Positions 5,517-36,179 of a stretch of DNA of 39,572 nt are shown here, piece after piece. Below the pieces are notes generated by a model. The model was not told where the DNA came from. It was given only the letters and a program-made list of their open reading frames with translations, and did no database searches. The DNA lies in the NCBI GenBank assembly GCA_032718475.1, contig JAUCBJ010001962.1, positions 1 through 39,572 of the forward strand, in the 5' to 3' direction. Within the stretch, counting starts at the first letter, position 1. Each line of letters starts with the position of its first letter. A program made the translations under genes and the position numbers. Origin of the DNA: Nemertoderma westbladi (taxonomy: Eukaryota; Animalia; Xenacoelomorpha).

Positions 5517-6114
5517 TGTGAGCGGATTCAATTCCGCTCACTACCCCCATAAAGTTGGGAAGTGGCGCCTTTTTCAGCAATATTGGAGATACAAGATTGA
5601 TAACAACCAATCTCGTATCACACCCAATAATGGGGATAACATACACCCCAAAAGCCACACAAAGGGAGGTTAGAGGTCAAACCACCTCGAGAGGGCAGAT
5701 AACCAACAGCGGGGGGGGGGGGGGGGGGGCACTCCCACAGAGGTGAGAGGCGTGAAGTAGGTCATCAACCAATGGGAACCGGGGAAAAGTATCCACTGGA
5801 CAAAGGCCAAAGTAATGTAGGAATGAATACATATATTATCCCATTACCGGTCAGTTACCCAGTTTACTCAGTCATTCAGATCAGTGCAGACCGGTGATGT
5901 TTTTCACCATCACCGTCACCATCACCGATATCCTACCTACCGGTATACAATACACATATATTATCCATCACAACTGTGCTATCATTGACTATTCATTTCA
6001 TTGATATTAATTACTAAAGGATCAAAGAGATAACAACAAACTTTTCCCATTATTCTCAATATCACGGTGACGCATAGTTCGACAAACCGGTTGGGATCCC
6101 TTGATCCCATCACA
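5517..6114 (+). repeat. 5' LTR of A1
   Basis: TGTGAGCGGATTCAATTCCGC...GATCCCATCACA; TATA-like ATATATTA at ~5831 followed by TCAGT initiator-like motifs. Confidence 0.9.
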
Positions 6115-6142
6115 GTGAAAAACTCCCAACAACCCACAAACT

Positions 6143-9509: not shown

Positions 9510-9518
9510 CCGCTCCCA
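9510..9518 (-). promoter_or_regulatory. Polypurine tract of element B (TGGGAGCGG)
   Basis: Purine-rich run immediately before the 3' LTR TGT on the minus strand. Confidence 0.7.
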
Positions 9519-9587
9519 GAAAATGGGATTTAAGTCTATAAAATATAACAAATCACAGTTTCTAAAATATAAAAATACTCTAAACAG

Positions 9588-12500: not shown

Positions 12501-13535
12501 CTGATTTTCCTCTGCTTGTTGTTGTAGACGCTCATCTAGGAACTCTTGTAAAGAGTAGGTTCGTCCACGTTCGATGTCCTCCTCGAGATTTTGTATTTCT
12601 CTATCGAACTGGGGTAAAGCTAATTCCTTCACCGCTTGGACTTGTTGTTGCAATTTACGTTTCTCCAAACAATCGTAAGTTCCTTTTCCGATTTTCTGCC
12701 GAATAGCGTCTAACGCGTTTCGTACGACGCTCTCTTCGACTTCCGTAACGGGTTGTATCGAGGTGAAGCCGGGACGGTTGTGTGGGTTAAACGGCGATAT
12801 TAGATGACCGCATCCCAATCCAGCTAGGTAGGGTTGGCGAATATCTAGCGAGCCTACTACCGGAGTACCACCAATCAACTGTTTGGGTAACACTAGATCT
12901 TTGAACAGTGAGTACAGTTCGGGAGGATCCGTGATACTATTAGGATCAAGAGTCTGAGGTCTAACTGAGGAATGAGGAGGTCTGACCGAGTATTCCGGAA
13001 CTCTGATTATTGGTTTGTTCAAGGATCGTTTGAGTCGAGCAACCGTAGGGGATACGTCGAACAGGTTTCGCTCGAAACTCCCATAAGTATATCGTGTAAA
13101 ACTGTGTTTAGCGCAACGTCTCCGCGGATGTTTATGTCTTTCCGTTTGCTGATTGGGTCTAGGGCACTCGTCGCAGTAATACCAAAGACGCACGTCCTGC
13201 AGGGGAAACGCGGGTGATCGTTCTCCAGTTTTACAATATTCCTCCATCTGTTCGAAGCTATCTGGGACGACAGGTAGCGGTCGATCGGCGGTGAGATACA
13301 TCATAGTGAAATAGAGTCGTTTGAGTTCTATCATAGGGTCATGATGTATACCTTGGGGATATCGAGTTTCGAGATTTTGTTGACTGGCAATATTGAGGTA
13401 TGTCTCTCTCAGGAATTCCAGATAATCATTGAAGTCGCTGCGTTTATCCGGCTCTTCAACGTCTTCCCTTTCGAGTTTGTTTCGAATAGAGTTCTCGTGT
13501 TCGCTATGAACGCACAAATTCAACACAACTGCCAT
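9588..13535 (-). CDS. Accessory ORF of element B, 1315 aa: DEDD(y)-type 3'-5' exonuclease plus three CCHC zinc knuckles
   Basis: Uninterrupted ORF. ExoI VVTYDNEG, ExoII region LPQPVLEMLFNERILKIGSAVYGD..FVDTQ, ExoIII-like PLRPSLAIYTIFE. Knuckles CRLC..H..C, CAYCRLNNSHIFAVC and CHHCQLKGHASYNC; basic C-terminus. Confidence 0.85.
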   Translation of the reverse strand: MAVVLNLCVHSEHENSIRNKLEREDVEEPDKRSDFNDYLEFLRETYLNIASQQNLETRYPQGIHHDPMIELKRLYFTMMYLTADRPLPVVPDSFEQMEEYCKTGERSPAFPLQDVRLWYYCDECPRPNQQTERHKHPRRRCAKHSFTRYTYGSFERNLFDVSPTVARLKRSLNKPIIRVPEYSVRPPHSSVRPQTLDPNSITDPPELYSLFKDLVLPKQLIGGTPVVGSLDIRQPYLAGLGCGHLISPFNPHNRPGFTSIQPVTEVEESVVRNALDAIRQKIGKGTYDCLEKRKLQQQVQAVKELALPQFDREIQNLEEDIERGRTYSLQEFLDERLQQQAEENQLEERHIELDEREEAALAQPEAQILMTDLYSKTILHPSMVPHFGDKLFATIQPQPVDINLRSRDLIADAPMLQRPPIEAARVDGILVEPPENRADLVRRMVHDVNIRARPLLDSFYGIKDHPYYVNLTQYYMIKPEDPTHSLRFLPLINPLNLVELEQLHKHLDQLVKINSFQKPYNVSRIEKETIPPYNLDGFIKTRLVHWNLDVLFEEERIQRYGDVETYTTQYLKYRDLPNASECATLWHPVGMTLENATKEWNETLNVIEMYGVVTYDNEGSVPVRELGTTRMTHIRGLAGSTHIFTRACSDVIDYSFEILTETQKKLRHGQFELAQRYIADTERKPAMGIDGSMLPQPVLEMLFNERILKIGSAVYGDLQNDFRNMENIPYPFVDTQLIAPWAEGRGFFRTMYANTPSGITKVQRTSIGHLAFQEYGWNFKVGNPINYQQVYGDHYSRLYFDGPLTAPGAVYSFMSVPLRPSLAIYTIFENAALAGWLADVCSRTIRAHPLILGTKLAKLDEHNKFIRFECFRRFLTPFRNVDSQFKDRALTKLSLRDSAAEKLNSAGFALFQDVCVQNLHSSVIQRPRIPTGYSVVEVQTVGPLAETAAPTSAMQLEDKPICLESEAIQPTAPRSSDNDYVLEWYQGPQCLTAYDYRHANYVSRKRCRLCALRDHFTPMDSDVPCSYFHEQPMMEIYCAYCRLNNSHIFAVCPQFMTQCHHCQLKGHASYNCPFNCDLESVDEMITLRYIRAWEVNADLHCEARHHYYPGRSYEGVYAFHPYLFASVEQKTRTPSYELMKRVGECISTKFVRKYLRNVNPKDITSYHLINYIRQDPEYGDLFINSHPELQEVSRRPYEYRARERELERTIKPRKFLTTHGPPTAIVQTTRQGPVGAAVLRRALKAVRPRSTEVDIDQPGTSTGGYTDRNPKPSDAIVLHPSPRSYSPPSKVARPKEKRTLASLKKLRKRRPRKKD

Positions 13536-14033
13536 AAACTGTACACATTCGGGCCATTTGTCCGTTAGTCAGTACCTTCCAGAATGTCACTTTATTTATT
13601 ATGTATCCTTGGATACTAGCAGTGCGCTATTTATTCCCTATGCTATTCAATGGGGTAAGCCTTCTATTGTTCTTTTAACTCACTTCTAATTCTAGCGTGG
13701 TTGTTGCCATGGTGACATTATGGAAAGCTAGCGGTAGAATTAGGGTAATTCTCATGCATACAGATCTGGGATGCTATTTAATAGTAATTCTTTAATTGTC
13801 AATATCCTCTCTATATATGATTTTATGAATTTTATCGGCTATTGACTATATATTGGAGATTCTCGCACACTAATACACTTAATAGAGTGAATCTCCGCTC
13901 CCATGATCTATTAATTAATGGAATTTTGGGAATGTTATAAATTGTATAAAATGACAATTTATTAAATTCATTGAAATATATGAATTTAAATTTATTCCCG
14001 TAAATTTTATTATTTAATGTTAAATAGACACAA

Positions 14034-14297
14034 TTTTATTCCAGAACGTGTCTGGGGACTGGGATCCTTGATTCTAGGAATTTGTCTTTTTAAGAGTATC
14101 GGTAAGTGCTACGATATCTTAATCGACTAGAATTTTAAAGGATCTAAAATTTGACAGATTTTGTAAATATTAATAATTAATATTTAGGATGGGCACCAGT
14201 TTATTCCAGAACTTGTCTGGGGACGTTAACCACTGATTCTAGAATTAGTCTTTCAAGTATATCGGTGGGTGCCGCGATATCTTAATCGACTAGAATT
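14034..14297. repeat. ~100-bp imperfect direct repeat in the pol-accessory ORF spacer of B
   Basis: tttattccagaac.tgtctggggac...gatatcttaatcgactagaatt at ~14035-14134 and ~14200-14297. Confidence 0.8.
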
Positions 14298-14845
14298 ACA
14301 GATGGTCAAAAGGTTTAACAGCTTTATTTTGCGTTATACGCTACTGTTAAAAGGACATCACGCTACTATATGTATTATTTAATATACGGTATGAGAGCAA
14401 TATCGCACGAAGCAATGTCAGTGAGAAGAGGCAAGTCGTTTCCAAGGTCTACCCAGAGCTTGGTTTAGCCGAGACACGAGGATCTGAACTTTGCATTCCT
14501 AATACTCTGCTTACCAATAATACTTGAATATAGTAGGAGCTTTATTGTACTTTAATAAGTACAGATATTTCATCTTACTGTAGTCACGTATTTATAATGT
14601 AATACGGACAGTAAGGAAAGAGAAAAAAAATTATTTCTCGCCGTCGCACTAAATATATAATATATAAGTAATTAAGTAATAAACGCGAATATATATTGCA
14701 CTAATCTACTAAATAATCGCTAAAATAACATTCTACTAAGTAAAATTAAAGAAAACGATTATAATAAAATACATAATAATATATACATAAATACAAAAGA
14801 ATAAAACAAATATAAAATCTAGTCATACACCCACTCCAGCCGTTG

Positions 14846-15195
14846 TTAAGTTGGGGAGTCCCTAGATGTTTGTTGGATTAGGGAGGTGGTCGTAGGAAGA
14901 GTATCTTGCCTCCCATAGTTTCCGGAGAGTTCTCTGTCTCTTTCCAGTAAACATAAGCGACCAACTGGGCGATTGAGCTGCTGTGTCTCGAAGACAATTC
15001 CCGGTTTCTTGAAGTTACGTCGCATGACGACGAGTTCTACCGATCGCACCAAACCATCATCCGAGATGTGAGTCTCGATGATACGACCTGTCTGCCACCG
15101 CTTACGTGGAAGATCTACATCCACAATAAGAACCATGTCTCCAGCGCTGACGTTTTCTTGCTGCGCAAACCACTTAGTTCGAAGTTGTAGCGTGA
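14846..15195 (-). pseudogene. pol: BEL/Pao pol C-terminal remnant (DUF5641-like integrase tail)
   Basis: TLQLRTKW..GDMVLIVD..PRKRWQTGRIIETHISDDGLVRSVEL..RPVGRLCLLE. Confidence 0.9.
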
Positions 15196-16889
15196 ACTCT
15201 GATATTCATGAGACTTACCTAACCAATCTAATTGTCTACAGATCTCTTGAATCTCATCGGAAAACTCTATTATCCCGCTGCTAATGAACTTTCGGGGCGC
15301 TACTAATTTCGCATACAAATATTTAGCTATATTATTCCTATTACCATACCTGATGTTTAGTGTATCCCAAACTTGTCTTAATCCGTCTGGATGTCCAATA
15401 AACTTTAACGCCATTAACTTGGGAGATCCTTCCAAGCACTCGATGAGGAATCTAAGTTTCTCTCCATTAGATAGTACAGAGTTCTGTATGTTATCTTTAT
15501 AATATTCATTAAAAGGTAACCATTTCATCTCATCTCCATTGAACTTGACTATCTCTCCCACCTTTACCGCTTGACGTGCTTCGGTTCTAGCCATTTGACG
15601 CGTAAAACTTTCTTGGGCCATCGTGTTATTCAATATCGAGTTATCGGTATATAAATTTCTCGGATTATGATCAGGTCTATAGGGAATATCATTATCAACA
15701 GGTCTATAATTACCCTTAATAGGGTTCACTATAGGAGTTTCTACTTCGCTAGCAGTATATATGCGTGTAGGCTCCACACATTGCGCATGAGATACTTCAG
15801 ACCTAACAGGTTGACACATTGTTACAGGGGGTGGTGGTATACCTCGTTGTGTATTTACTAATTTATATCGCTCTAAAGCGATACTTTGCTGCACTTCTTG
15901 CAACTCTAACCTACTTTCCCTTACTGTGCCCTTGAATTGCTGAACAGTCTCCTGCATCTGCCCGAGCAGGAGATCCATCCCCCGTCGTCTCTCATCCACC
16001 CACTCGACCGCCGAAGCGGGAGCCGCCAACGTTGTAGCGGGCCGACGAGGGACAACGGGCAACAAATCATTAATATTTCGCTCGGAGTCCAGGACATGAG
16101 CATTTTCAAGGGTGGTTCTGTGTGGCACAGATAGCTTAGTGCTGTGCAGAGGGAATTTAGAGGTAGGTTCAGGGAGTACAGGTGTCTCTATCACCGAAGG
16201 AGTGGCTTCGGGAACAGGCCTAATTATTTCAGGCTCATCTACTATAGTAGGGAGTCTTTCTATTTCAATTATTTGGTCTGTGGGTTCTGTACTACCTAAG
16301 TTTGTGTTATTTAGTTGCTTTCTAACAGCTGGGGGCAAATCCGGCAATTTCTGGCGGTGGGATATTCTTCTACGTCTGCTTAGGCGAGATCGATTTCCTC
16401 CGCCTTCAGGATCGGTGGTATCGCCTTCCTCAGATATGTATTATATCCCTGTCTTTTGGGAGTTGATCGACTCATCATCTGCATATTACTAGCTGTTAAC
16501 TGTTTATTAAAGTTGTCTTGCTTCTCTTGGAGATTTTCCAACTCTAGTTGGGCGATCTCTTCAGCCGCTCTCCGTTCTGCTTCTGCCACCGCTATCTTTC
16601 TTTCCGCTTCTGCCGCTGCTGCCGCTTTTGCCTCCGCTGCTGCCGCTTTTGCCTCTGCCGCTGCTTCTGCCGCTGCCGCTTTTGCCTCTGCCGCTGCTTC
16701 TGCCGCCTTTCTTTCTGCTTCTGCTTCTGCTGCTGCCGCTGCTGCTATCTTTCTGTCTTCTATACGTTTTTTCTTTACTTGTTCTTCTAAGTTGAGTTGT
16801 TCATCAAATTTAGCTTGGTTCGCAGCTCTCATATCCACATCAATGGCGTCCAACACGCTGGGTTCCTTCACTATTAGGGCTAAGTCCAT
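15196..16889 (-). pseudogene. gag: gag of element B (Ala/Glu coiled coil, DUF1759-like capsid), frameshifted and C-terminally deleted
   Basis: IVKFNGDEMKWLPF..LSNGEKLRFLIECLEGSPK..WDTLNIRYGN; frame change near 16445; zinc knuckles absent. Confidence 0.85.
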
Positions 16890-17910
16890 CTAGCCTTCTC
16901 CTCAACTCTTCATCACCTAAAAAACGTTGATAGTCTGACAGATAGATGTCAATGGCATCCCTCTTATGCGGTTTCTCTGCCGTCGCTTCACTTTCCACTT
17001 GTGAAAAAGTAGCATCTGTTGATTCTCCATGGGTTGAGCGCTCATCTAGCTGAGCTTTCCACTGAGCTGTTCCTTGAACCTGGAGACTCACCCGTTGAAA
17101 CCAAGTCTTTACGGCAACTTGCAACGACGTGTCTTGTCTTCTTTTAGAAGCCTCCTCAAAGGCCGATAAGATTAGCCTGATTCGTAGAATTCTTTCTCTA
17201 ACTTGATAAAGCAGCTGTCCCTGCTCTTGAGGTCCTTGGGGTTGTTGAAACAGTTGTTCTTTTAATCGCTCCATGGAGCTGAAGAATCCCTGTGCGTATC
17301 CTACTGCGGACCTCTTCCACACAGCTGGATCGATGGTTTCTTTGGTTACTCCCATCCTGTGTATGTCTTCCCACGCAGCTTCTGATAAATCAAACGGGAG
17401 TCCGGGTCCGGGGAAGTTCCATTGCGACTCGACAATAGACTTCAGTTCTTCCCTTGTGTATCCCGCATAACTATCTTTAGTCGATCGCTTATTTCTCGCC
17501 CAATTGATCTGGTGTTCTTCCACTGCAATCAATAACCTAGTGAGTACGGCTGCAGGAAGGATAAGAAGGGGATCCGAATAAACCGCATCCGTCCTCTTTG
17601 CTCCACGCTCGGGTGTCAGCTCTATAGTATCCTCACTACTGGAGCTGTCGGGCCGTTGAGAAATAAGTTCTTGGCTCGCGGGTTGTTGCTGTTCCGCTGC
17701 TTCTTGGTCCCGCTTGACCTGAGCTCGAGTGCCTATGATAGACCTACGATGTTGGACTAGCCTAGGGTCTGATATTACTATGGGAGGGATGATCTTTCTT
17801 ACAGTAGGAGGTGAGTTGAACTTCGGTCCTACTCGTTCCACACTCCTGTCTGGGTCACATATGGTTGTATCTAGAAGACTGTCTGACAGGTTTTGCTTTG
17901 TGTCAGACAT
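16840..17910 (-). CDS. 356-aa upstream ORF or Gag N-terminal extension of element B, function unknown
   Basis: Open frame from ATG 17910, first ORF after the leader, overlapping the next ORF by 50 nt; no motif recognised. Confidence 0.55.
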   Translation of the reverse strand: MSDTKQNLSDSLLDTTICDPDRSVERVGPKFNSPPTVRKIIPPIVISDPRLVQHRRSIIGTRAQVKRDQEAAEQQQPASQELISQRPDSSSSEDTIELTPERGAKRTDAVYSDPLLILPAAVLTRLLIAVEEHQINWARNKRSTKDSYAGYTREELKSIVESQWNFPGPGLPFDLSEAAWEDIHRMGVTKETIDPAVWKRSAVGYAQGFFSSMERLKEQLFQQPQGPQEQGQLLYQVRERILRIRLILSAFEEASKRRQDTSLQVAVKTWFQRVSLQVQGTAQWKAQLDERSTHGESTDATFSQVESEATAEKPHKRDAIDIYLSDYQRFLGDEELRRRLDGLSPNSEGTQRVGRH

Positions 17911-19243
17911 GTTGGTTTGTACAGTTGAATGCCTACTGCTATATTACAGTTTAAGCAAGCCTAGTAATTCAGTATCACTGTTAGCCTAGTAATTAATTAC
18001 CGATACTGCTACTCAGTGTAGCATGATATATATATAATATATTAGAATACCGGTATGCTTATAGTATATATATATAAGTATTGTCACAGACTAGATTTGT
18101 CACAGAATACCGGTATGTAATTCCAGCACAAGTATATATAAATATATAATAGGCCTATCGTGAATACCGGTATAGATCTTACCACTTATAGTATATATAA
18201 GTATAATTATTAACTAGAATTAATTACAGAATACCGGTATAATTTCAGCCTAAATTTATAGAAATAAATATAATAAGCCTATGGTAAATACCGGTATGTC
18301 AATTATTTTAAATAATTGAATTTCTGAATTAGGGGTTACTTGGTTACTTTAATTTACTTTATTACCGTTATTTGAGCAGTAGTCCAACTGATATTGAGAC
18401 CTAGTTGTTGTATGGCAGGCCTACTATTTATAAATCGGTTTGAGTTGATTTATAATATATATACCCGTTATAATGGGTTTTTGTCAATATTTGAAATAAA
18501 TGTTATTATTTCTGGGGGGAGTCACTACACAGAAGCTGTGCGCTCTCAGTGAAGTGTTACTTGTTGGACACTAAAACAAATAATTCTAATTTACCTAAGT
18601 TACTTAATACTACAAATTACGTACAATTCGGGTGAAATTACAATCTCTAAATAAACACAAAAATTACAAGTACGAATTTTTAGGGTAATTTTACAAGAAG
18701 TCTACTAACCAGCCTAACAAAGGGTTAGAATATCTGGTTATTACAACGGACAGGTTACTACGGTATTTGAAAATAATAAGTAGTAGTAAATATACTGCGT
18801 TGTCCAGATAGAAAAATACCACCGTCTGACGACTTATAGCCGTATCGCTATAAGTACTACGTTATGTATCACGGAGTGTTCCTACCTAGAAGTTAATTAC
18901 CGCGGTCTACCAGAACCAACGTGCCTATTAACCACTTTACAACACAAATATACTGCCTACACACTAATCACCTTCGGAAAGCACTGTACACTAAACCCTA
19001 AATTAGGTACAAGTACTTATACAACAAATAACTAGCAGTTAGAAATACTTGAACAGCTAAAAGAACCACGGTATCTGCCGGAGTGACCAAAGCATAAAAT
19101 CTCCAGTCTTTACCTACGCCAAGCAGCCCTGATGTAGTACCGGGGTTAGTTTAACTGTAACGGTATATATAACAAGCACAATTACTGTAGGAATAAACTT
19201 GGGGAATGAATGTTGCAAATAATCGCATAAACTCTGAATAATA

Positions 19244-19810
19244 AATATTACGCTGCGCGTACAGACTACTCAAACAAAATGCAGACCAAATGATGACAGA
19301 CTACTATCAAGCACAAACAAACTACGGTATATGCAGACTCCGAAATGGTTAGTTAGTATGCGTTCTAACCGAGTAGTATGACTTATTCTTTCGAGGGGGT
19401 TTACCTCACAGCTCTGGAAGCCCCTACGTTCCCAACTGGCACTTTATCGGACATACACTCTACACACACCGAAATCTCTCAAGACCCAACAACAGCCAGA
19501 CAAAATCCAGCCTACAAATTATCTAAGTAAGAAATATTACGCTACCCGTACAGACTACACAAACAAGGTACAGACCAAACGCTGGCAGACTACTATCAAG
19601 CCTAAATACACTACAGTATATGCAGACTCCGAAATGGTTAATTAGTATGCGTTCTAACCGAGTAGTACGACTTATTCTTTCGAGGGGGTTCACCTCACAG
19701 CACTGGCAGCCCCTACTTTCCTAACTAGTACTTTTTCGGACATATGCTCTACACACACTACAGTCTCTTCAGACCTAACAACAGTCAGACAACAGTCCAG
19801 GCTACAAATT
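19244..19810. repeat. ~289-bp tandem duplication in the long 5' leader of B
   Basis: aatattacgct..gtacagactac..gcagactccgaaatggtta..ttattctttcgagggggtt.. occurs twice (from ~19244 and ~19533). Confidence 0.85.
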
Positions 19811-20149
19811 GTCTGTACAATCTGAGCAGGCTTACACGCCTTCTGCTCAATGCTGGCCTACAAATAAATAAAACTGACAGAAATAAGTAAGCTCCAAAAG
19901 AAACAAGGGGTGTACAGTCCCTAATCTCTTAAACAGCCTACCGGTATACAATTTCACAATCGAATAATACTGCTGTACCTGTACTGCTGTAGGTACCGGT
20001 CCGGGTGGTTAGGTAGTCAGGCCTACTAGGTACCGGTTAACCGGTACTTCAGCTTTATTGCCTACTGCAATACAGAAGCGTATATCCGTTATTGTTCTTA
20101 CCAGAACAATATTAAACTGTATTTATTGCCTACACCGCAATCCGAACTT

Positions 20150-20161
20150 TATATCCGTTAT
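20150..20161 (-). promoter_or_regulatory. PBS position of B (ATAACGGATATA), non-tRNA, complementary to its own LTR
   Basis: Abuts the 5' LTR end; reverse complement of LTR segment 20912-20923; no TGG start. Confidence 0.75.
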
Positions 20162-21355
20162 TGTTCGCGCTTTCAGACCTTTAGCAGTTTAACCTGCCAA
20201 ATTGGGATGTCTTCTAGATAATAGATCGTCTTTAGCCTATGACAAGTATTTGATACACTACATTAGCCGAAGCCAGTCTATGCGCGATCATTCACCCACT
20301 GGATATACCTGGGAGACTGGATTCGGGAGCCTAACTGTATTGCGGGGTAGGCCTACTGTATTATTCGACTGATCGTAATATATAATCTCTGACAAATATT
20401 ATTCACTTTCGGGAAATATTAACAGTTCCTTTAGGACGTGGCGCTCTAAATATATAAACAGAGTTATGACTTAAACCAGACACAACGGGATGGCTATAGA
20501 TTCACTCACGTATATGGCGCATTCTTTAGGAGATGCTTCGTTATCAATCACGATCATACACAATACTGCACAATGCTGCACACCAATCTGCCGACCTTCA
20601 CTAATTTTAGTCACATATAAGGAGAACAACAGACAATACATGTAGGGCCTATAAAATAGCATTAGATTCACTTCAAACCACTTAATGTAAGTCGCAATTG
20701 TTATATGTAACCGGTCTCTCTAACCTTTAGTATATCAAGAAGATTGGGGTGTCTGATTATTTATCAGTATTCCAAATATAATATTCCATCAACAAATATA
20801 ATGAATAACCGACAGTAAAAGCAGCAAATTGTTAAGGTATAAATTGATATGATCGCTTTGTTAAGTATGTCAGTATGGTATGATTAGTTAAGTTCAGTGA
20901 GTTATGTTAAGATAACGGATATACGTTCTATAATTAAGCCTACTAATGTTGAGCTAAAGACTGAAACACGGAGGTTCCATGCTGGTGTTGTAGGCTGCGG
21001 ACAAATCACATACTGACTCAACTCCACGAGTTTCTATATACAATCTCTAACACAGAGGCAAAAAACGCTCTGATTGGTTGACCGAACAAAGAAGGAACAG
21101 AGAACAAAGAAAAGGTCCACGTATACAGCATCAGCTGTTAGCCGTCGTCATGGTAGCTACACTGTTTACAGAGGATTTGGCGCATTGCGTCATAAAATTG
21201 CTAATCATGTCCGCTAAAGTACACATACAGAAGAAATAGCTTTTATGTCCTCTAAAACAACAGTACAGTAAGGACACGGCCTTTTATGCCTGTTAAACCA
21301 ACTACAGAGTACTTTACGGGGAAAATAACCGGCTAATTACGCAAAAGCCTTTACA
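20162..21355 (-). repeat. 5' LTR of element B (1194 bp)
   Basis: Direct repeat of 8320-9509. Minus-strand TATATAGA (~21040) lies ~26 nt upstream of a TCAGTA initiator-like motif (~21014). Confidence 0.97.
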
Positions 21356-24608: not shown

Positions 24609-25155
24609 TGTGAGCGGATTCAATTCCGCCCACCACCCCATAAAGTTGGGAAGTGGCACCTTTCAGTAATATTGGGGATACGAGGTTAATCCCCAATTAA
24701 CCTCGTATCACACACCCAATAAACGGGGACAACAAACCCCGAAGGGCCACACAAAAGGGAGGTCAGAGGTTAAACCTCCGGGCGGGGAAAGTAACAGCAG
24801 TGGGGGGGGGGGGGGGGGGGGGGGGGGCAGGGAACGCATCCGCTAGGTTCAATGGCCATAAGTAATGTAGCTAACCAATATATATTACCGGTCAGTGCCC
24901 ATCACAATTTCAGTTATCTCAGTTATTCAGGGCAGTACGGTGACACTTTATACCATCACCGCCGTCACCAATTATTATCTATATTACCGGTCAGACACTG
25001 TGCTATCTGTTATCTGCTATCTTTGTATACTATAACCACTACTGTCAGAGTTTATCAATAATATCGGAACAACAAACTCTTTCTTTTCCATCACACGGTG
25101 CAGCCTGACGCGTAAATAAACCAAAACCCAGTCTGGATCCTCTGATCCCGTCACA
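24609..25155 (+). repeat. 5' LTR of A2
   Basis: TGTGAGCGGATTCAATTCCGC...GATCCCGTCACA; TATATATT at ~24879, TCAGTT at ~24910, AATAAA at ~25116. Confidence 0.9.
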
Positions 25156-25261
25156 GTATAAAGTCACCGACTGGCCTAGTTACTCAGTTACTCAGTACGG
25201 TCACAGTACGGCTACTGACCCTAAAGAACTGTGACTGCCAGCCACCAGAAGGATAGACAGG

Positions 25262-27330
25262 ATGAGCGAACCCCGAGACTTAGAGGGAGAGACGACACCA
25301 CCGCGGACCCCGGATGATACGAACGAAATGATCCACGTGGCCGCGACAAGACAGTATCGACCCCAACACTGTCTACCAGAGCGGGAGGAAGAGTCAACGC
25401 GCGACAGCGCACGAGGTACCGATGTCGCCGGACAGCCACAGGCCGAGGGCGACGGACGGCCCACCGGAACGGCGACGGTGCGGCCGCCGGTACGATGCCG
25501 AACCAGGAGGGGAGAAGGAAAGATCGGCGATGAGGACGTCGGAACCAGCGACCGGCTCCGACGAGCCTACAACGCAACCAAGAAACAACTCAAGGAGGCT
25601 AGGGAAGGTGTAAAGATAGATCCAGGAAAGTTAAACCAGCGGCTAGGTGAGTCGAACAAACACTTTAAATACCTAGTTCGCTTCGGGCAGGGAGAACTAG
25701 CCAGTGAGAGAGCGAGGGGGGTCGCCACCGAACTATTTGAACTGTGGCGATCCAGGATTATGGAGCCCCAAGTTGTGTACATAGGGCCGTATTTAGTGGA
25801 TGCGAGGGGTATTAAGTTAGTGGGTTGGGCAGACCCGCACGAGGGCGAATCCGAGATTAACCCCGAGGATTCGGTCTCGTCGGTTAGCGAAAATCCCAGA
25901 AAGCGGGGGAAAGTTAGCAGGACGGAGAGGCGATGGGAGTCCGTCGCGACCGACAAGTCCGCTACATCCTCCGCAAAAGTAAGAAGGGTGTTAGAATTAG
26001 ATCTGGCGTGCCAGTTGGATATGGTGGTGCTAGACCAAAAGGAGTTAGAGAGACAGTTGGAAGAGGGGAGTGCATTGTTAGAGAAAGAGAGAGAGTTGGC
26101 GAGGGAGTGTAAATAGAGGGCCGAAAGGGTGGCGAATGAGCGTGAGGCGAGAGAAACGAGAATAGAGAAAGAGCGCGAGGAACGAGAGATGAGAGCAGAG
26201 AAAGAGCGCAAAGAACGAGAAGCGAGAGAGGCAGAATTTGCGGACCAAAGTTTACGGGAGGATAGAGAGAGAGAGAGAGCGGGGAAGCATATGCGGGATG
26301 ATATGCATGCCCGGTTAAGGGGGCTTATGCAATATCAGGCCAAACAGAAGCGCCGATTGGAACTGGCGTAGTTGGGGCTATCAGAGAGCGAGGCTGGCTC
26401 GGATAGTGTTTATGAGGAGCCAGAAGTTATGGAAACGTTTGTTAATACCCCACTTACAGGGACCGGACGACAGACCCAAGACTGGTGTAACCGTATGGGC
26501 GGGGGTTGTGGGGGGGGGGGGGGGTATTAATAATACGTTAGAGAATGTTGATATTAATAGTGCCGTAGTGGATAACCCTAATCAAACTTTCATTGCAGGA
26601 AATAATATTTTGCCTGATTATTGCAATTTAAATCCGAACGATCCTAGTTTAAATGTAGAAAATAACTCAAATAATAATATAGATTCGAATTTACAAAATA
26701 ATTCAAATAATTTAAATACGCAAAATAATCTAAATAACAATCTTAATTCAAACGAACACTCTAACCAAAATATAGAAAATATTTTAAATAATAATCCGAA
26801 TTCAGAAAATAATTCTAATAATATTTAAATAATTTGGAAAATAATATTAATAATGGTGCTATTAATGTAAACGCAGCTAATGTAGGTGGTCCGACCAGCG
26901 GGGGCCTGGTGTGCAGGGGCGTGCTAGTGTGCAGGGAGTAACGGGGGTGAGAGACCCCGAGGTGGGCCTGGTAGGCCACGTAGTTAGTACGCAGGGAGTA
27001 GCGGGGTTATCATTCCGACGGGAGCCTGCCAGGCAACGCAGTGATAGAGGGAGAGGCGGGGGTGAATAGACCCAGCTGCAGTAGAGTTAGTGCATCGACT
27101 AGAGAGGGGTGTAGAAGCGAAGTAAGAGATAGTGAAGTGATAGGTGGCGAGTGGGGGGGGGGGGGGGCTACAGGAGCCCCACAACGAGAGATTAGCGGCG
27201 AGAGGGGGGGGGGGGCAGAGAGTGTCCCACAGGCGTCGGCGGATAATGCGCAGGGCAAATTAGGTGAACCGCAGCACCCGGCGATGGAGAATAGTAGGGG
27301 GATTACGAGTATCACCAGCGGCGTGCGACC
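25262..27330 (+). pseudogene. gag: Degenerate gag N-terminal region of A2
   Basis: Homologous to A1 6350-7900 (INPEDSVSSVS, coiled coil, Asn-rich tract); stops at 26114 and 26369; capsid and knuckles deleted at ~27330. Confidence 0.75.
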
Positions 27331-30300
27331 AGCTGATGCTGGTCGACAGTGGAGCAGCCTCCACATTGGTCGAGAATTGGGTGGCCGAAGAGATAGGATT
27401 GAAGACGAGGCCAAGTAGAATGGCGGTAACAACCATCTCCAGCAAAGATGAGGTCCTGGAGATGAGGACTGGACGGTGCGGGATAGCAGCGATAGCACCG
27501 GGATGCGATTATGGGGCGACAATCAACCCCATCCAGGTGATAGAGTCGATAAATATCAATGCCAGGCGACCAACCAACATCGAGGTCGAACAATATAGAT
27601 TCCTGGACAGCATCGACTTCTCAATACCAGAAGTGGACGTTAGGAAGGTATCCATTATAGTAGGAATGGACTGCCCGACGGCCCACGAGAGAATGCAGAC
27701 GGTCTTCGGTGAAGACAGACAGTGTGACCCGGTGGCGATTTTAACACCATTCGGGTGGATGCTGAGCGGCCCAATCAGAACCAAGATACCGTTTAGGATG
27801 TCGGAGACATCAGGATGCATGTTCGCGGGAACTATGCGGGAGATGGAAGATCAGGGAGCGGAGGAGCAGCTCAGGAGACTGCTTAGGCAGGATTTTGAGG
27901 GTTTTAAAGAGACTGGGGTCGGAACCTGGGCAGAAGATAAACAGGCTATGCAAAGCATAAAGGAGTCGATGAGATGCGATGAGGGGCGGTACACCATAGG
28001 GATGGTATGGAAACAACCAAAATTACCGTTGCCCGACAACAAAGGAATGGTACTCACGAGGCTTCGTAAGTTGAAGCAAATGCTAAAACGAAGCCCCGGA
28101 AAGAATGAGTACATTCATAGAACTATAAGAAAGTATGTCTAGAAAGGATGGGCCGTGGAGTTACCGGTCGACGAACCGAAAACGGACAGGACCTATTACC
28201 TACCACTTCACGTGGCTTTAGACCCGAAGAAAGGTAAACTGCGGATGGTAGTTGACGCATCGGCCAAGACTAATGGCAAATGCCTAAACAATTATCTGCT
28301 AGAGGGTCCCAACATCTACAACTCAGGGATCGAGGTCCTACTCAGATTCAGAAACGGGAGGCATGCCTTCACTTGTGACATGGAAGGCATGTTCAACCAA
28401 GTCCGTGTGACGGAGGAGGATAGCGACAGCCAGCGCTTCCTATGGTACAACGTCGACGAGGAACAGTCGACAATACTGATGTACAAGATGGTGGTGCAGA
28501 ATATGGGGCCCAAGTCGTCCTCATTTACGATGACTGTGGCTGTAAGGGACACAGTAGAGGGGAAAGAGGAGAGTTACAGTGCCAAAGCCGTCGATATGAT
28601 TCGACGCGGCTTCTATGTAGATGACGGGATGGAGTCTGGAAACACGGTTAAAGAACTACTGAATACAGGGCGCGAGGTTCGCGACATCCTGAAAGGATCC
28701 GGGTTTAACCTGACCAAGTTCCAATCCAGCTCGGAAGAGTTTATGAGAGCCATAGAGGACAGGAGGCCAGAGTCGACCATGGATAATCCCACGACAGCCA
28801 AGGGACAGGACATGGCAAACAATAGGGTAGAGTCCCAGCAGAAGGCATTAGGGATCGTGTGGAACTGAGAGACAGACGAGTTCAAGTACCAGCTGAGCCA
28901 GGAGGGCGCGGACATCCACACAAAGGGGGGCTATGTATCGTATGTAGCAAGGATATACGATCCCCTAGGCCTAGCATCCCCACTATTAGTCATGGGAAAG
29001 CAGATACTTAAGAAAGTATACAAGCTAAAGGACGAATGGGATACAGAGGTCCCGGAAGAGATCAGCAAGCAGTGGAGCAAGTGGACAGAGAGTTTAGAAC
29101 AGATGGGGACATACAGCATGCCACGCGTGTATTTCCCGGATGGGGACATAACGAATCTGGATCTGCATATGTTCTCCGATGCGTCATTGGAAGCATATGG
29201 AGCGGCACTCTACCTAGTACAACGAGAGGGGGCCCATAAGCCCAGACTTGCATTCAGCAAAGCAAAGTCGACGCCCCCAGATTCAGCATTGGTCCCAAAA
29301 CTCAAGTTGACAGCTGCGAGATTAGGAGTAAGAGCCACAGCATACTTGATGGACACTATTCCCAACATAGTGGAAACATACTACTGGACGGACTCCATGG
29401 TAGTGCTTGGTTGGCTACACAATGAGAAGATGAGATACCCTATATTCGTCGCAACACTTTGTGGTACGCCACACTTTCTTGAAGAAGGAAGTATTGTGGC
29501 AGCACGGGCCGCAATTCCTGAACGATAGGACAGCCTGGCCACCGATGAAGAAGGTGGACCCGGGCTCAGAGGAAGTGGTATTAGAGGAAGAGGGAGGAGA
29601 CTCAGAAGGTGAAGAAATAGTCAAATGGTGAGGGAGATCAGGGACGTGCAACCAAAAATGGAAGAACTATGCGATAACCCGATGGACAAACTCCTCAGCT
29701 ATAGCTCAAGTTGGTACAAGACCAAGAAGTTAGTGGCGTAGTAGAGAGCCTTCGGGAATTTCCTCAAGGGAGTCGGTAAAGACACCAAAAATAAACCAAA
29801 CATCGATCTGGAGGGAGCGGCCAAGGCTGTCATTCGTTACGAACAGGGAAAGAACTATGGCGAGGAAGTGGAGCACGTCGGTAAACAACAGCATCTCCGT
29901 CGGGACAGCGAGCTTATCACGCTGTCGCCACAACTTAATGAAGATGGGATCTTAGTAATGAACTCTAGAGTGCTAAATAACAACAGCCTCATTTTTCCTC
30001 CAAAACCCATCATCATCCAGAATAGATCGCCGATAGTCCACCAGATCATCTGGGACTCCCACAAGTCAATATTGCACGGGGGCACCAACCGGACTCTCAC
30101 GGAGATAAGGAGGACCTTCTGGATCACACAGCTAAGGAAGAAGGTGAAGGCGGTAGTGGGGCAGTGCCAGACCTGCCAACGGACGAGGAAGGAGCGGGCC
30201 ATACAGGAGATGGCGCCATTACCGGCCTTAGAAAGGTTCAGAGACCGCAAAGGTGGGACGATCGCAGTAATATACTCCGATAATGGAACCAACTTTGTGG

Positions 30301-30986
30301 GGGCGGAGAACGAGTTGGCAGAGGCCTTGGACATCCTGGAAGGGGAGGAAGTCAGGGCAGCCATGAGGAGACGACAGGTGAAGTGGGAGAGGAGGACGCT
30401 GTATGCTCCGCATACTCTAGGATGCATCGAGAGACTCGTGGGTAGTTCCAAGCGTCTGATGACGAAGCTGATGAACACCCACATTGTGACAGAAGATGTA
30501 CTAAGGACGGTACTAGCTAAGTGCGAGGGTATCATTAATAGCAGACCGCTATACCCAGAAAATGATGACCCAGAGTCATTAGATGTGCTGACACCCAGTC
30601 ACTTTCTAATGGAGAGGTCGGCGACCATTGACATGCGGGGTGTAGACCCAGACGATATATACTCCCGACAGAGTTGGAAAGTCGCTAAGGCGATAAGCGC
30701 GGAGTACTGGAGGAGGTGGGTCGAGGAATATCTACCCACACTTCATAGGAGGAGCAAGTGGAGAAATACCACTAGGGAGTTGAAGAAGGATGATCTGTTG
30801 ATCGTCATGGACGATACCATCATCAACAACCAATGGAGATTGGCAAGAGTAGTGGACACTTACTCCGATGAGGACGGAAGAGTCCGATCGGTAGAAGTGC
30901 AGATAGGTGGAAAGATAGGAGCGAAAGATAGGAAGACCTACAGGAGGGCTGTAGGAAAATGCTGCCTGCTAAAGGGCGCACCGTAG
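27331..30986 (+). pseudogene. pol: BEL/Pao pol (aspartic protease, RT, Pao RNase H, integrase, DUF5641-like tail)
   Basis: LVDSGA; YYLPLH..KLRMVVDASAK..LNNYLLEGP; CDMEGMFNQV; FYVDDG; LHMFSDASLEAYGA; H..HGG..CQTC; YSDNGTNFVGA; WRRWVEEYLPTL..DGRVRSVEV. Several stops and frameshifts, and an in-frame deletion in the integrase core at ~30224. Confidence 0.95.
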
Positions 30987-31164
30987 AGTTTAGTCGTCCA
31001 AGTGTTGGACTGAGGGGGGTGGGATTGAGGGCGAGACGCCCTTTCCACACAAATATAAAACATAAAAAAAAATAATAAAATAATAGAGAAAGAGAGAAAG
31101 AGAAAGGAAAGTAATAGTACATAGTAGGTACGTAGTAAGTAAGTAGGCAGATAGAAGTTAGTCA

Positions 31165-31665
31165 GAGTCAGTTAGTAGTAAGAGGGTACGTAGTACCGTT
31201 AGTTAGTTGGAGAGTTAGTTAGTAGTAAGAGGGTACGTAGTACCTTTAGTTGGAGAGTTAGTTAGTAGTAAGAGGGTACGTAGTACTGTTAGTTGGAGAG
31301 TTAGTTAGTAGTAAGAGGGTACGTAGTACCAGCAGTAAGAGTTAGTGGAGTTAGTTAGTAGTAAGGGGGTACATAGTACCGGTAGTAAGAGTTAGTGGAG
31401 TTAGAGAAGTTAGTAAGAGGGTACATAGTACCGGTAGTAAGAGTTAGTAGAGAAGTTCATAAGAGGGTACATAGTACCGGCAATAAGAGTTAGTGGAGTA
31501 GAGAAGTTAGTAAGAGTGTACATAATACCGATAGTAAGAGTTAGTAGAGAAGTTAATAAGAGGGTACGTATAGTACCATTAGTAGTAAGAGTTAGTGGTA
31601 AGAGGGTATATATTATACAGTAAGAGTTAGTAAGAGTTAATAGAAATTAGTTAGAAAGTTAGTAG
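31165..31665 (+). repeat. Degenerate ~35-42-bp tandem repeat between pol and the accessory ORF of A2
   Basis: Recurring gttagtagtaagagggtac(g/a)tagtacc units, about 12 copies. Confidence 0.85.
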
Positions 31666-32092
31666 TGAGTAGCGAGAGGGGGGCACGTGGGTACAGCTAG
31701 GCAGATCGTGTAGGCCACACGAGATATACTGCTGAACTGCACAAGCCCATAGAGTAGACCAGAATATGGATTAGAATAGAAATAATCTATTAGTAAATAC
31801 TGATAGCACAGTTGTAGAATTAAAAATTAAATATTAGAAATTAGAAATTAAACAAATTATGGTAACAGTAAGAAAAATATTCCAGAACATAATTAAAGTA
31901 ACGGACAAAATTACGAAATTTAGTAAAAATTAGCACTTTTAGGGAATAAGATGGGAAAATTAGGCAATAACCTGACATTCAGCGAGAGATAGGCCATTAT
32001 CGGACCGCAGAGACTATCCAAACTTCATCACTCATCTATATTGTGCCTTGGCAAGGCCCCACCTTATAGGTGAGCGATCGAGAGAGTTCGAA

Positions 32093-34080
32093 ATGGCGGA
32101 GAAACTTGTCCAAAAGAGAAAGGTGGAGTTGGGAGGAAAGGAGATACTGGTGGATTTCACCGAGAGGCATCCGGAAGAGAAGACAAGGGGATACTACGAG
32201 CAGTTAGAGAGGGGTCACAAAGCGCGAGCGCTGTAGGACCATTTCAGGGAGGTGCACGAACAGCGGCTGGTCGGGACCTACGGGACACCGTTGCTAGATA
32301 ACGCAATCTTCAAGCATTTCCACTACGTGGTGAAGGGAGACGAGGCAAAGTTTGGGATACCGAAGTATCCAAAGGAACCACCGAGAAAGGACTGGAAGAG
32401 GTTCGTAGAGTCCGTCAGCAGGGGAGGATACATGGTCCTAGATGATGAGGGGACCGTGGAGGATGAGGAAGGTTTGAGGAGAGGGTCGGCGGGGTCGGCC
32501 AGAACCATACTCCTACATTTCGCCACGCCAAATGGGGACATTTTTCTGTTCGACCTGGGAACGTATGGGAAGAAGAACGGGCCGAAGTTGAACCGGTTGC
32601 CAAAGGCGGTGCAAGCCCTAGTAAGAGAGAAGACGACGATAAAGGTGGGATCGGCGATCCGCGATGATGCGGAGAGGATCATCAGTCCGGAGACCCACAA
32701 CCTCCTGGACATGTAGACGGTCTACATGGCTATAACAGCACCAGGCGGGTTGGGGCTAGTAGAGAACGCAGGCCATTGTGGAGCGGTGGTGATGGGCCAG
32801 CTAATGGGGCTCGTGTGTCAATTCAGAGAGGAGTATGGTTGGCGAACTCGCTGAAGTGGGGAGCGAGACCAGGGAAGCAAGAGGTCTATCAATTCCGGAG
32901 AGGAGCGATAAAGGTATATCAGAAGCGATATATCCTACAGGAGGACTGGATAATGATAGGTTTGCTAAACCTATTCATGACCGTGGTTATCGAGAGAGAA
33001 CCAATGGCATTCCTGCTATCGGGATCACCCCTGAACTACAGAAGAGCCTTCAAAGTGGCTTTCGAGGGTCTGGTAGACCACCCGGGGCTGAAGGGCGAGT
33101 CGGTATACTATATCTGCCGATATCTAGTAGATGGGGAGGTGGATACGCTATATCAGAGGTGGGAACAGCTAGAGGCGGATAGACATGAGGCGAAGCGATT
33201 GGAAGAAATCGCTAGGAGAGAAAGGAGGGAGGCAGAAGAAAGGGAGGAGGAAGCTAGCGCAGAGAGCTATGGATTCGAGGAACAGGCGGCCTTAGACGAG
33301 CTACACTGGACATCAGGGAGTTCGGGCGAGTCTCTAGGGCGAGAATTGGGGTGGACGGTGGGATCACCGAAACAGTCGACATCGGGATTGCAGACGACGC
33401 CCATACCAGCGGGCGCCAAGGGCGATTTCGCACAGAGGAGGCCAGGGGAACTGGAAGGATGGAGTCACGGGCGAGAGCCAAGGTGGGAAGGGTCACAGTG
33501 GATCCACCGGGATACCGGGATTGGAGCCACTCGCAGAGGAGGACGAGGATGACGACAAGTTCGGAGAGATGCCGCCCATCGGGAGAATCGGCCACTCGGA
33601 CACGGACTGGGTTAGCGGGAGGGTGGTGACGGCCAGCGGGGCGAGGGCCTTTTGGGATAGACCCGGCAAGTGGGCCTGGGTGCATGAGGAGATAGACGTG
33701 GACAGGGACGCTAACATCCAGAAGTTCGCTTACCAGCGACTCCATAGACCGAGGAGATCGCTTGGGATGAAAGACGACGTGGGGCGGGAGGCATTGGTAC
33801 TCGGCTGTGATTACTGCGGGAGGCAGACTCACCAGGAAAGGAGCTGCTTGTACCGATTCCAGAAAGGGACTAGCTGTCTCTACTGCCACGAGTCGAGTCA
33901 CATGATGGGGGCATGTCCACGGTTGCACATCCGGTGTTCTAAGTGCAACTTCCGGGGGCACTACGGACGCCAGTGTGACTGGATGGACGACGAGGAGAAG
34001 TTTAGGATTTTCGAGGAGTGGGCTGATGTCAGCGCCATGACCCGACAGCGGATGAAGGCCCAGGAATTCCGGAATTCCGG
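32093..34080 (+). pseudogene. Accessory ORF of A2: DEDD(y)-type 3'-5' exonuclease plus three CCHC knuckles
   Basis: MVLDDEG; LLHFATPNGDIFLFDL; LPKAVQALVREKTTIKVGSAIRDD..LLDM; RYILQE; CDYCGRQTHQERSC, CLYCHESSHMMGAC, CSKCNFRGHYGRQC. Stops at 32234 and 32714 plus frameshifts. Confidence 0.85.
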
Positions 34081-34720
34081 AATTCAGGAAATGTGCGCAC
34101 GTTTGCGACAAATAGTTCATCGCTAGTGAAAACCAAATCTAGATTACTCGAGCCACGGGTAGGCTCGTGTTGTAACTGGGTTAAACTTGATTCTAACAGC
34201 AGCGCTGCGACGCGTTCATAAAGTTCGGTATTTGGGTAGATACTTTCCTTCCAGTTGAACAAAGGAAGATTGAAATCGCCAGTGATAACGCACGGGTAGT
34301 TAACATCCGATAGTAAAGACAGTGCATCGCATAGTAAGCTGCTGTTATCTGGAATCAGTAAACGCGATGGGGGTCGGTAGGCGCACACGAATCTGGACGG
34401 CGCTTTTCCAAGTAGATCGATGGCGACCACTTCGGCATCATTATAGGTGTTGGGTAGGTTTACCCGTACACAACGAAATTGATCGCGAACTAAAATTATG
34501 ACTCCACCACCATCCCTAGTTTTCCGGTCATTGCGAAACATATTAAAGTTTGTGCTAGATGTGATCATTGTATCGGGTATAGTCTCGTTCATCCATGTTT
34601 CTGTAATCGCGATGATGTCGTAACTAGTCTCCTTGAGAAATACTCCTAGATCTGACAGTTTATTTTTCAGCGAACGGGCGTTTAAGCAGCAGCAGTTTAG
34701 GATTGGTGTTTTTTTATGAT
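34081..34720 (-). pseudogene. LINE ORF2 apurinic-like endonuclease domain (truncated)
   Basis: LNARSLKNK, DIIAITETW, FRNDR..GGGV, YRPP, ITGDFNLP, PTRGSSNLDLVFT; breaks before the SDH motif. Confidence 0.92.
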
Positions 34721-34835
34721 TCTCTCCCCCTATTGGTTTTCCAAGGGCGGTGAGGCCTCCGATGAATTGTTGGTAGGATCCGAGACTGGTACATGGGTCC
34801 ACGTTTTATTGCGTTTCCATTTACCATCAGAGTGT

Positions 34836-35909
34836 TTAACGAATTTCCACACTGAACCGTCGGACCTTAGGCTGTAGCTTTCGAGAATGATCATCTTCAG
34901 ATTTTGCAGCTTTATTAAGGTCATAAACCTCTTTATTTCTATCTTTGATACGCGAGCGCTGTTCCGCTGATAGACTCGGGCGAACGCGGATCTTTTTACA
35001 TAAGTCTGATGATGATACATTTGCAGTCACATTCTTATGAAAGGTGCGGGCCCCCTGTTCGCTGTTGAACGAGACTTTTACGAGACGGTCATGGTTCCCA
35101 AGACGTCCCAGTCGGGACACTTCGACCACCGAAGACTTGTCAACCCCGGCCAACTCGCAGAGCTGAAGCACCGAATCTTTAACAGACACCTCGTTATCTT
35201 CCTTCAGTCGTGAAATAATGATCTCTTTCTTTAGCTGTTCTTTTTGGAAAACATCTTTTATGGACTTATCCACAGCTCTGGAAATTGGTGTACTGGGATC
35301 GGAAGAATGCCTGGGCTTTCCTTTTCCGCGTTGCACATTCCATCGCGAGGATACGTGTACATCTTCGTCCCCATCTAGCTCAGTTCTGAGTTCCAAAATT
35401 TCCGTTGATAGAGTAGACAGCCTAAGCGTTAAACTGTCACTCAACATTTCAATTTTGTCAGAAAGCGATGTGGCCGGGGTTCCCGGGGAATTGTAGGACT
35501 GGACTACCAATCTACCTCTTCCCTCACACTTATTGCACAGGATTTTACAGTTTACGCATTTGGCTAAGGTGGATACCTCAGTATTCGATAGTTTCAGGCA
35601 CGATCCATGGATCCAATGTCCACAGATTTCGCATCCAAGGCAGTTCTTACCTGCGACTTTCTTGTCACAGTGTGGACAAATGTCCATGGAGTTGACATTT
35701 ACCGAGTCGTTGTGGCAAGATGATGAGTGGAGGTCGTAGTCGCTCTTATTCGCGAACAGAGCACTGCAGATATCGCAGTTGTGTAGTTTCGACATATCTA
35801 TTTTGCCGCCGAGGCTAGGTCTTGGTGCTGAGGTGGTTGTCCCTCCAGGTACCGCCCCCGCCCCAGCCATGCTTAGTCGCGTCTGTGGTTGCTTGTTCTT
35901 TGGTGGCAT
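34836..35909 (-). CDS. LINE ORF1 protein (C2H2-like finger, PHD finger, coiled coil, RRM-like region)
   Basis: CPHC..CEICGHWIHGSC..CNKC (C4HC3); IIISRLKE..VSRLG..RLVKVSF..IRVRPSLS; probable frameshift near the C-terminus (~34890). Confidence 0.85.
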   Translation of the reverse strand: MPPKNKQPQTRLSMAGAGAVPGGTTTSAPRPSLGGKIDMSKLHNCDICSALFANKSDYDLHSSSCHNDSVNVNSMDICPHCDKKVAGKNCLGCEICGHWIHGSCLKLSNTEVSTLAKCVNCKILCNKCEGRGRLVVQSYNSPGTPATSLSDKIEMLSDSLTLRLSTLSTEILELRTELDGDEDVHVSSRWNVQRGKGKPRHSSDPSTPISRAVDKSIKDVFQKEQLKKEIIISRLKEDNEVSVKDSVLQLCELAGVDKSSVVEVSRLGRLGNHDRLVKVSFNSEQGARTFHKNVTANVSSSDLCKKIRVRPSLSAEQRSRIKDRNKEVYDLNKAAKSEDDHSRKLQPKVRRFSVEIR

Positions 35910-36179
35910 TGCAGCAGTACCGGTACGGTAGGTATTGTTGTATAATGCAGTAATGTATAACCATCCAGTTCACAGTTGCACCGTAGGCTGTAGGCTGTAG
36001 GGCTGTAGCCTTCAAAACCAGAATACAGTTTTTATATGCAACAGTCAGATATCTGTAGCAAAAAATATTGATAGAAATCATTTACCTTCTATTTTATTAT
36101 CATTTTATTTCCTTATTTTTTGACTGAACATATAAAATATAATATGCACCACTGAACCAACCACCCTCCTGGAATGCAG

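Follow-up and report, generated by a model that had tools for sequence, protein, structure and literature searches.

Two distant families of BEL/Pao-type retrotransposons in Nemertoderma westbladi share a third gene, placed behind the integrase in both. The copy in element A2 represents a real, old and selected accessory gene, and its product is predicted to be a DEDDy-type exonuclease with zinc knuckles; we give this gene-level reading a probability of about 0.9. The evidence comes from contig JAUCBJ010001962.1, positions 1-39,572 of the forward strand (the window), which is a nest of mobile elements. Its main residents are:

360..984, minus strand: A0 5' LTR including the primer-site position (LTR 984-369)
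2049-4758: piggyBac-like transposon (PF13843, 43-nt inverted ends), beside a 38-nt tandem array at 4730-5545
5517..6123, plus strand: A1 5' LTR including the primer-site position (inferred LTR end 6114)
8320..21355, minus strand: element B, internally deleted BEL/Pao-type, 13.0 kb, no RT
21355-20162 and 9509-8320, minus strand: B LTRs, TG..CA, 1177/1190 aligned bases identical, 5-bp target duplication
13535..9588, minus strand: B third ORF, intact, 1315 aa
24609..25155, plus strand: A2 5' LTR, its end inferred from a conserved block and a terminal inverted repeat common to A1 and A0
27264..30986, plus strand: A2 pol by Pfam, with protease, RT, RNase H (PF05380) and integrase (PF17921, PF18701), broken by stops
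31155..31570, plus strand: spacer of tandem repeats that separates A2 pol from the third ORF
34070..35969, minus strand: LINE fragment (PHD-like ORF1, endonuclease N-terminus), which abuts and truncates A2 at ~34069

A2 has the protease, RT, RNase H, integrase order of BEL/Pao elements, together with a Pao-type RNase H and DUF5641 (Pfam E-values 5e-40 for PF05380 and 7e-23 for PF18701). B has the TG..CA LTRs and the target duplication expected of the same group, and in it gag pieces (PF03564, 2e-10) are joined to an integrase C-terminal fragment (PF18701, 1e-15), the RT having been deleted. At this joint (window 15194-15199) five X3 contigs diverge, by eye, into integrase-like sequence, so B copies with more of pol probably exist. 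A1 and A0 are 5' remnants of A2's family. Each A copy has one LTR in the window, and because the window holds no A2 3' LTR the end of the A2 LTR had to be inferred.

The window has other tenants. One more unit of the 38-nt array lies at 22108-22164, the point where the A1 gag breaks off. An AT-rich, intron-free frame of 310 codons with weak beta-propeller/WD40 hints sits between retroelements at 23764-24696, a Gypsy-like integrase fragment (PF17921) at 36926-37750, and interleaved direct and inverted repeats of ~160 nt, a possible DNA-transposon end or satellite, at 38711-39225.

The third ORF of A2 can be read through its breaks as follows, all on the plus strand:

32028..32069: sequence resembling a branch point and a splice acceptor, its end 23 nt short of the ATG (by eye)
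32093..34069: A2 third ORF, decayed, made up of exonuclease, low-complexity linker, triple knuckle and aromatic motif
32441..32449: ExoI D-x-E within LDDEG (D 32441-3, E 32447-9)
32666..32668: ExoII Asp, in KVGSAIRDD (K-V-G-S +8)
32929..32946: probable ExoIII Tyr-x3-Glu, then Asp; VYQF-x11-YILQE (Y 32929-31, E 32941-3)
33806..34021: three CCHC knuckles and the Trp motif after them, by sequence alignment

The knuckles are three C-x2-C-x4-H-x4-C units at 33806-33976, followed by FEEWAD (W 34019-21), and an LLDM motif is also present. The B protein has the corresponding exonuclease residues at D616, E618, D717, Y825 and E829, the last two in VYSF-x11-YTIFE. Its knuckles (aa 1007-1072; the first two with longer spacing than in A2) are followed by a Trp motif, WEVNAD, and a basic C-terminal tail. 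All of the motifs that a sequence-only reading of this DNA had named are where it placed them in A2 and B, and its view that the two divergent ORFs are collinear and occupy the same post-integrase position is borne out. That reading had the A2 ORF run from 32093 to 34080: the start stands, but the gene is cut at ~34069 by the LINE fragment.

The remaining 560 N-terminal residues of the B protein (window 11856-13535) have no match in Pfam or among PDB sequences. Within them are a single Cys/His cluster, near aa 121-143, and a stretch that resembles a coiled coil. On the minus strand ahead of the B ORF lies a second acceptor-like site:

13539..13572, minus strand: sequence resembling a branch point and an acceptor, its end 3 nt short of the B ATG (by eye)

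Most of the damage to the A2 gene is private to this copy. The ORF has stops at 32234-6 and 32714-6, and its frame changes near 32820-32840 and near 33461-33466. At the first stop 52 contigs with 99.8% of the depth read otherwise (run X1), both frame changes vary in length among contigs, and loose ends in all four runs extend beyond 34069. Since the contigs differ at the first stop, at the frame changes and at the 34069 end, we attribute most breaks to decay of the A2 copy alone. The second stop is absent from the best-supported 40 of 297 variant rows. By eye, A2 sister copies continue beyond the cut with a motif like that of a third protein, P0001, described below.

The A-family gene is multi-copy (contigs matched: 3,248 in X1, which may be the run that the window itself comes from, 3,082 in X3, 24 in X4 and 5 in X5), and its copies have diverged under constraint. 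Differences between A2 and sister contigs, taken from the same 40 best-supported rows, number 39 in the ORF, and 20 of these fall at third codon positions (p 0.015). Within 32280-33170 the bias is stronger, with 15/20 at third positions (p 1.7e-4); for differences with a share under 0.9 the count is 14/23. The five catalytic codons are untouched by the listed differences. Among these best-supported rows, the third-position bias between sister copies agrees with the proposal that the module is selected. The intactness of the B ORF is on its own a weak hint, because neutral decay predicts only ~2.6 breaks. Domestication of the B ORF by the host was considered and rejected; the ORF is flanked by the two LTRs of a highly repeated family. 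Single X1 and X3 contigs omit 2.5-2.7 kb of the B third ORF (window 9749-12491), including nuclease and knuckles, with short sides that make the observation weak.

The A2 and B proteins are homologous. We aligned A2, with X at its breaks, to B by local alignment under three scoring schemes with 500 shuffles. The real score of the whole protein, and likewise that of the knuckle region, beat 500/500 shuffles in all three schemes (z 8.4-9.6). For the exonuclease region alone z was 3.1-4.6, with 0-7/500 shuffles reaching the score, and tblastn gave E 4.5. The direct pairwise signal derives mainly from the triple zinc knuckle. An alignment reaching beyond generic DEDD motifs is clear for the knuckle region (z ~9) but weak for the nuclease by itself (z 3-4.6).

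P0001 bridges the two. It is a 648-aa protein, encoded on one 9.4-kb contig, with the same layout as B and A2. When all 1.84 billion representatives were scanned by HMMER, with B aa 560-1110 as the query, it was the sole match (E 1.9e-6). P0001 matches the B nuclease at E 6e-13, the N-terminal nuclease part of A2 at 8e-7 and the A2 knuckles at 1e-12; against the A2 segment with YILQE there was no significant match (best E 0.39). The best pairwise partner of each family nuclease domain is another family member. A2, B and P0001 are only ~25-30% alike. The predicted relationship of the 32093-34080 ORF to the 1315-aa protein is upheld by the alignment above shuffles and by this bridge.

The sharing is also old. 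At their integrase C-termini A and B share only 28.6% identity over 84 aa, and the B gag pieces find no match in family A, as expected of the old module that the sequence-only reading had proposed. Homology, collinearity, position, age, selection and the existence of a third, independent protein with Y-x3-E together argue against a one-off capture, as it had also held. Its further claim, a distinct nuclease subfamily, is plausible: the three domains group together at 99/97 in a tree with 30 bacterial domains only, and no eukaryotic ones, as references, but on very long branches, and on a P0001+B profile the A2 nuclease domain scores 18.1 bits against 19.1 bits for the best bacterial reference. 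Whether the gene marks one BEL/Pao subclade or has been exchanged between distant lineages is a choice between two readings that fit equally well. B has lost its RT, P0001 comes as a protein alone, and the searches described next brought up no further locus.

Relatives of the gene are scarce in the collections searched, which are thin on animal repeats, so that null results there do not establish absence. Word-indexed protein searches gave 0/2824 candidates for B 560-1130 and 0/1955 when longer proteins were searched with the N-terminal part of A2, and a further one returned P0001 itself as the sole match among 1459. Viral contigs yielded no relative, and plasmids only one knuckle match (E=6). 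The one locus singled out from 111 metagenome candidates (L001) was rejected as a single-knuckle protein without a nuclease. Weak matches occur in 74/151 bacterial genomes (best 3.8e-5); nearly all are to the generic ExoII stretch and therefore indicate no specific bacterial donor, and we rejected a bacterial source.

The N-terminal half of the nuclease domain is, on a structure model, EXD2/RNase D-like in fold. The model of P0001 was built from a four-row alignment and has pLDDT 50-79 only over residues 31-147; its C-terminal half is of low confidence. Its best match is EXD2 (Foldseek E 1.6e-6; VIA Z 10.9, rmsd 4.6, 126 residues), followed by Egalitarian, RNase D, Exd1, Nibbler, NrnC and Rrp6, and the DnaQ-like fold covers residues about 31-168. 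Profile evidence points the same way. An Atlas search led to PF01612, and HHalign of the family profile against 30 bacterial PF01612 domains gave a probability of 95% and E 3.8e-8 over ExoI and ExoII. Among PDB sequences EXD2 and RNase D came up at E 0.15-0.17 with a three-row profile; the other PDB sequence searches were blank or hit the knuckle only. Pfam detects a nuclease in P0001 alone, at E 0.2, and none in B or A2; it likewise finds no HNH domain, and no HRDC domain in any of the three up to E 1, a search in which the nuclease too is barely detected. A single-sequence model of B was unusable (pLDDT 30.7), and the Atlas search with the knuckle part returned generic knuckles only, under 0.9.

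The predicted active site departs from the class at one position. EXD2 has the catalytic residues D108, E110, D171, Y242 and D246, as listed in PMC6648332. A2, B and P0001 all have the ExoI D-x-E and the ExoII Asp. At ExoIII, in place of Y-x3-D, the Tyr is kept and Glu stands for Asp in B, in P0001 and probably in A2; this Tyr and Asp are invariant in 30/30 bacterial references. In the global HHalign alignment, P-L-x3-Q-x2-Y-x3-E of the family lies over P-L-x3-Q-x2-Y-A-A-x-D of the references; the Tyr residues share a column, and so do the Glu and the Asp. When the Asp column is left out of the reference profile, the site ranks 1/348 in P0001, 3/261 in B, where the two positions ranked above it lack a Tyr, and 3/346 in A2. 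P0001 and B recover each other's site at rank 1 in 11/12 scans. The A2 site ranks 1-10 with P0001 as query and 4-15 with B (~350 positions), and the P0001+B profile does not pick it up. The YxxxE variant that had been read in both families is, on these alignments, solid for B and P0001; for A2, whose Glu is followed directly by Asp, it is probable. The predicted domain is best described as a variant of the DEDDy class and not a canonical member. Four acidic residues and the Tyr are kept in all three proteins, with the same acidic replacement each time. Klenow is reported to tolerate Glu at the fourth site; here the change from Asp to Glu may weaken or abolish activity.

Beyond anything claimed from the sequence earlier, both families lack a tRNA primer site. 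TGG is absent after the 5' LTR in 4/4 elements (B, A2, A1 and A0), and instead of the 18-nt tRNA-Arg/Gly site of BEL/Pao elements each has a short complement of its own LTR:

20150..20161, minus strand: B primer-site position, 12 nt, no TGG; complementary to LTR 20923-20912, also in the 3' LTR
25156..25164, plus strand: A2 primer-site position, no TGG; complement is the LTR-internal 9-mer 24945..24953
6115-6123, plus strand: A1 primer-site position; complement 5899-5907
368-360, minus strand: A0 primer-site position; complement 588-580
25150-25230, 6108-6150 and 310-375: LTR-end-complementary block in the three A copies, possible U5-leader stem

The LTR end of B is certain, and the 12 bases next to it are the exact reverse complement of an LTR segment, which happened in 2/2000 shuffled LTRs. 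A complement of 12 nt is also reached from 3/200 control start points in B, which by eye owe it to a repeat of the primer-site sequence ~65 nt downstream. In A2, A1 and A0, whose LTR ends are inferred, the 9-nt complement recurred in 9, 9 and 5 of 2000 shuffled LTRs, respectively. The complements of the A copies occupy the same alignment columns although the LTRs are only 61-67% alike. All 27/27 cells pair and 6/9 pairs have changed on both sides, with none in slid registers, a comparison of three rows only in which the pairing structure, derived from the same sequences, is favoured over slid versions. Half-tRNA priming in family A was rejected: its three primer-site sequences differ yet track their own LTRs. 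The complement of B, at 12, is longer than the 10 bp asked for by the rule in PMC6317226, and the A copies, with 9 bp, are one short. With primer-site positions complementary to their own LTRs and covarying, B and the A copies appear, from sequence, to be self-primed. Sequences resembling TATA and initiator sites precede the complement by 20-117 nt, and a start there would make the complement internal to the transcript, so that the primer would need a cut or trim. AATAAA/ATTAAA is absent from the B, A1 and A0 LTRs, an observation too weak to count. A conserved block 25-60 nt past the LTR of the A copies is, by eye, the reverse complement of the LTR end.

What might the nuclease do? We considered a role at the self-primer because both families lack a tRNA site and carry the LTR complement. 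The third gene would be read from a spliced subgenomic RNA, given the acceptor-like sites before both ATGs; its knuckles would bind element RNA, and the nuclease would be catalytic and act in trans. The R-region copy of the LTR complement would pair with the primer site, and the nuclease would trim the 3' overhang to the edge of the duplex, leaving a flush 3'-OH for RT; this duplex would be the simplest substrate. That the enzyme acts on the 3' ends of the element's own RNA or cDNA is the functional reading we favour, and it strikes us as nearly an even bet. That it finishes the self-primer specifically is rather unlikely, and the full proposal, a BEL/Pao lineage that primes with its own RNA 3' end and uses a DEDE-y exonuclease to trim through R to the primer-site duplex, free of both tRNA and RNase H, is more doubtful again. 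Self-priming may do without a nuclease gene. Against the primer role stand Tf1, which, as described in PMC7175516, makes its self-primer with RNase H alone, and the DEDDy ORF3s reported from bdelloid rotifers, which also sit on Penelope-like elements that have no primer site. B and P0001 have basic tails, which could point to work in the nucleus and not in the particle.

An active nuclease might instead serve counter-defence, degrading or mis-trimming small RNAs or element dsRNA and so blunting piRNA/siRNA silencing, with knuckles that bind RNA and self-priming as an unrelated trait. Its fold neighbours include Nibbler, Exd1 and RICE1, which have small-RNA roles. Both families are highly repeated in host contigs (X1: B 59,039, A 3,248), although these are contig counts and not copy numbers, and a role in trans fits the single contigs that skip the B nuclease core. 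Arenavirus ExoN is reported to suppress innate signalling (PMC7968707), but the bdelloid DEDDy ORF3s are described without a clear link to copy number (PMC5408684), and we judge this role rather improbable. Somewhat less probable still is a pseudo-nuclease that binds without cutting, like Egalitarian or EXD1, its fold and knuckles holding, chaperoning or localizing element RNA and its Glu marking a relaxed active site. Egalitarian and Exd1 are among the fold matches, the exonuclease domain of Egalitarian is reported to bind RNA signals (bioRxiv 10.1101/2025.08.03.668247), and the fourth Asp, invariant in 30/30 references, is changed here. Such relaxation sits poorly with four acidic positions and a Tyr kept across three proteins so divergent, the replacement always being Glu. 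Least credible, and very improbable in our estimate, is the view that generic DEDDy nucleases and knuckles were captured twice, independently, and share a motif by coincidence. The weak direct alignment of the B and A2 nucleases, and an A2 domain that does not rise above a bacterial RNase D-type reference on the P0001+B profile, lend this some colour. The same domain order, position and knuckle spacing, with its Tyr-Cys and following Trp, speak against it, as do the links of P0001 to both proteins, best partners that lie within the family, and A2 sister copies that run past the cut with, by eye, a P0001-like motif.

The shared third gene has its closest parallel in bdelloid rotifers, where the LTR elements Juno1/2 and Vesta2/5 and Athena/Terminon carry a DEDDy-exonuclease ORF3 with a DEED motif (as described in PMC5408684, PMC6431247 and PMC6338049). 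That ORF3 is reported to be exchanged between element classes, its function untested (PMC5408684). In A2 and B, as in the bdelloid elements, a separate ORF with a predicted RNase D-like DEDDy fold and a D-to-E change lies behind pol, in the env slot. The bdelloid hosts are Gypsy-like and Penelope-like whereas ours are BEL/Pao-type, and the bdelloid motif is, in the text of that paper, written DEED whereas here the fourth residue is changed. A triple knuckle is present here and is not described for the bdelloid ORF3 in the portions of those papers covered.

Among cellular enzymes, EXD2, WRN, RNase D, Nibbler and Egalitarian share with our predicted nuclease the N-terminal half of the fold, the ExoI D-x-E, the K-V-G with ExoII Asp and the P-L-x3-Q-x2-Y spacing. 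By contrast, it has Glu for the last Asp, longer inserts, and a linker and three CCHC knuckles fused to it. The Belpaoviridae profile describes elements of 4.2-10 kb that have gag and pol, optionally env, and a primer site of 18 nt for tRNA-Arg/Gly (PMC8742986). Our elements resemble it in their LTRs, protease, RT, RNase H, integrase order, PF05380, PF18701 and PF03564; they differ in having an enzyme-like third gene, in lacking a tRNA site and, for B, in a length of 13 kb despite the loss of RT. They are BEL/Pao-type by protein domains and fall outside the ICTV description. Like Tf1/sushi self-primed Gypsy elements, they have no tRNA site and a primer-site position complementary to their own LTR over 9-12 nt. 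In Tf1, which belongs to another superfamily, RNase H frees the opening 11 bases as the primer, according to PMC7175516, whereas the complement here appears to lie tens of bases inside the predicted transcript.

The term 'exonuclease' has no occurrence in the portion covered of a BEL/Pao survey (PMC3118150), and a literature search judged mostly by title and abstract start, with Repbase, GyDB and subscription papers outside its scope, found neither a BEL/Pao exonuclease gene nor BEL/Pao self-priming. Within the reach of our searches, published third genes of the exonuclease kind are confined to Gypsy-like and Penelope-like elements of bdelloid rotifers. A predicted exonuclease third gene in two far-apart BEL/Pao lineages extends the pattern to another superfamily. 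What the ORF3 exonuclease does has been an open question since 2017, and the tRNA-free primer sites give it a concrete candidate substrate. The intact, natural B protein can be assayed, and its Glu variant offers a test of the strictness of the fourth DEDD ligand. If the primer link fails, the finding is a modest extension of a known theme; if the full trimming proposal is true, LTR reverse transcription would have a third mode of initiation, and a retrotransposon-borne DEDDy gene would have its first function.
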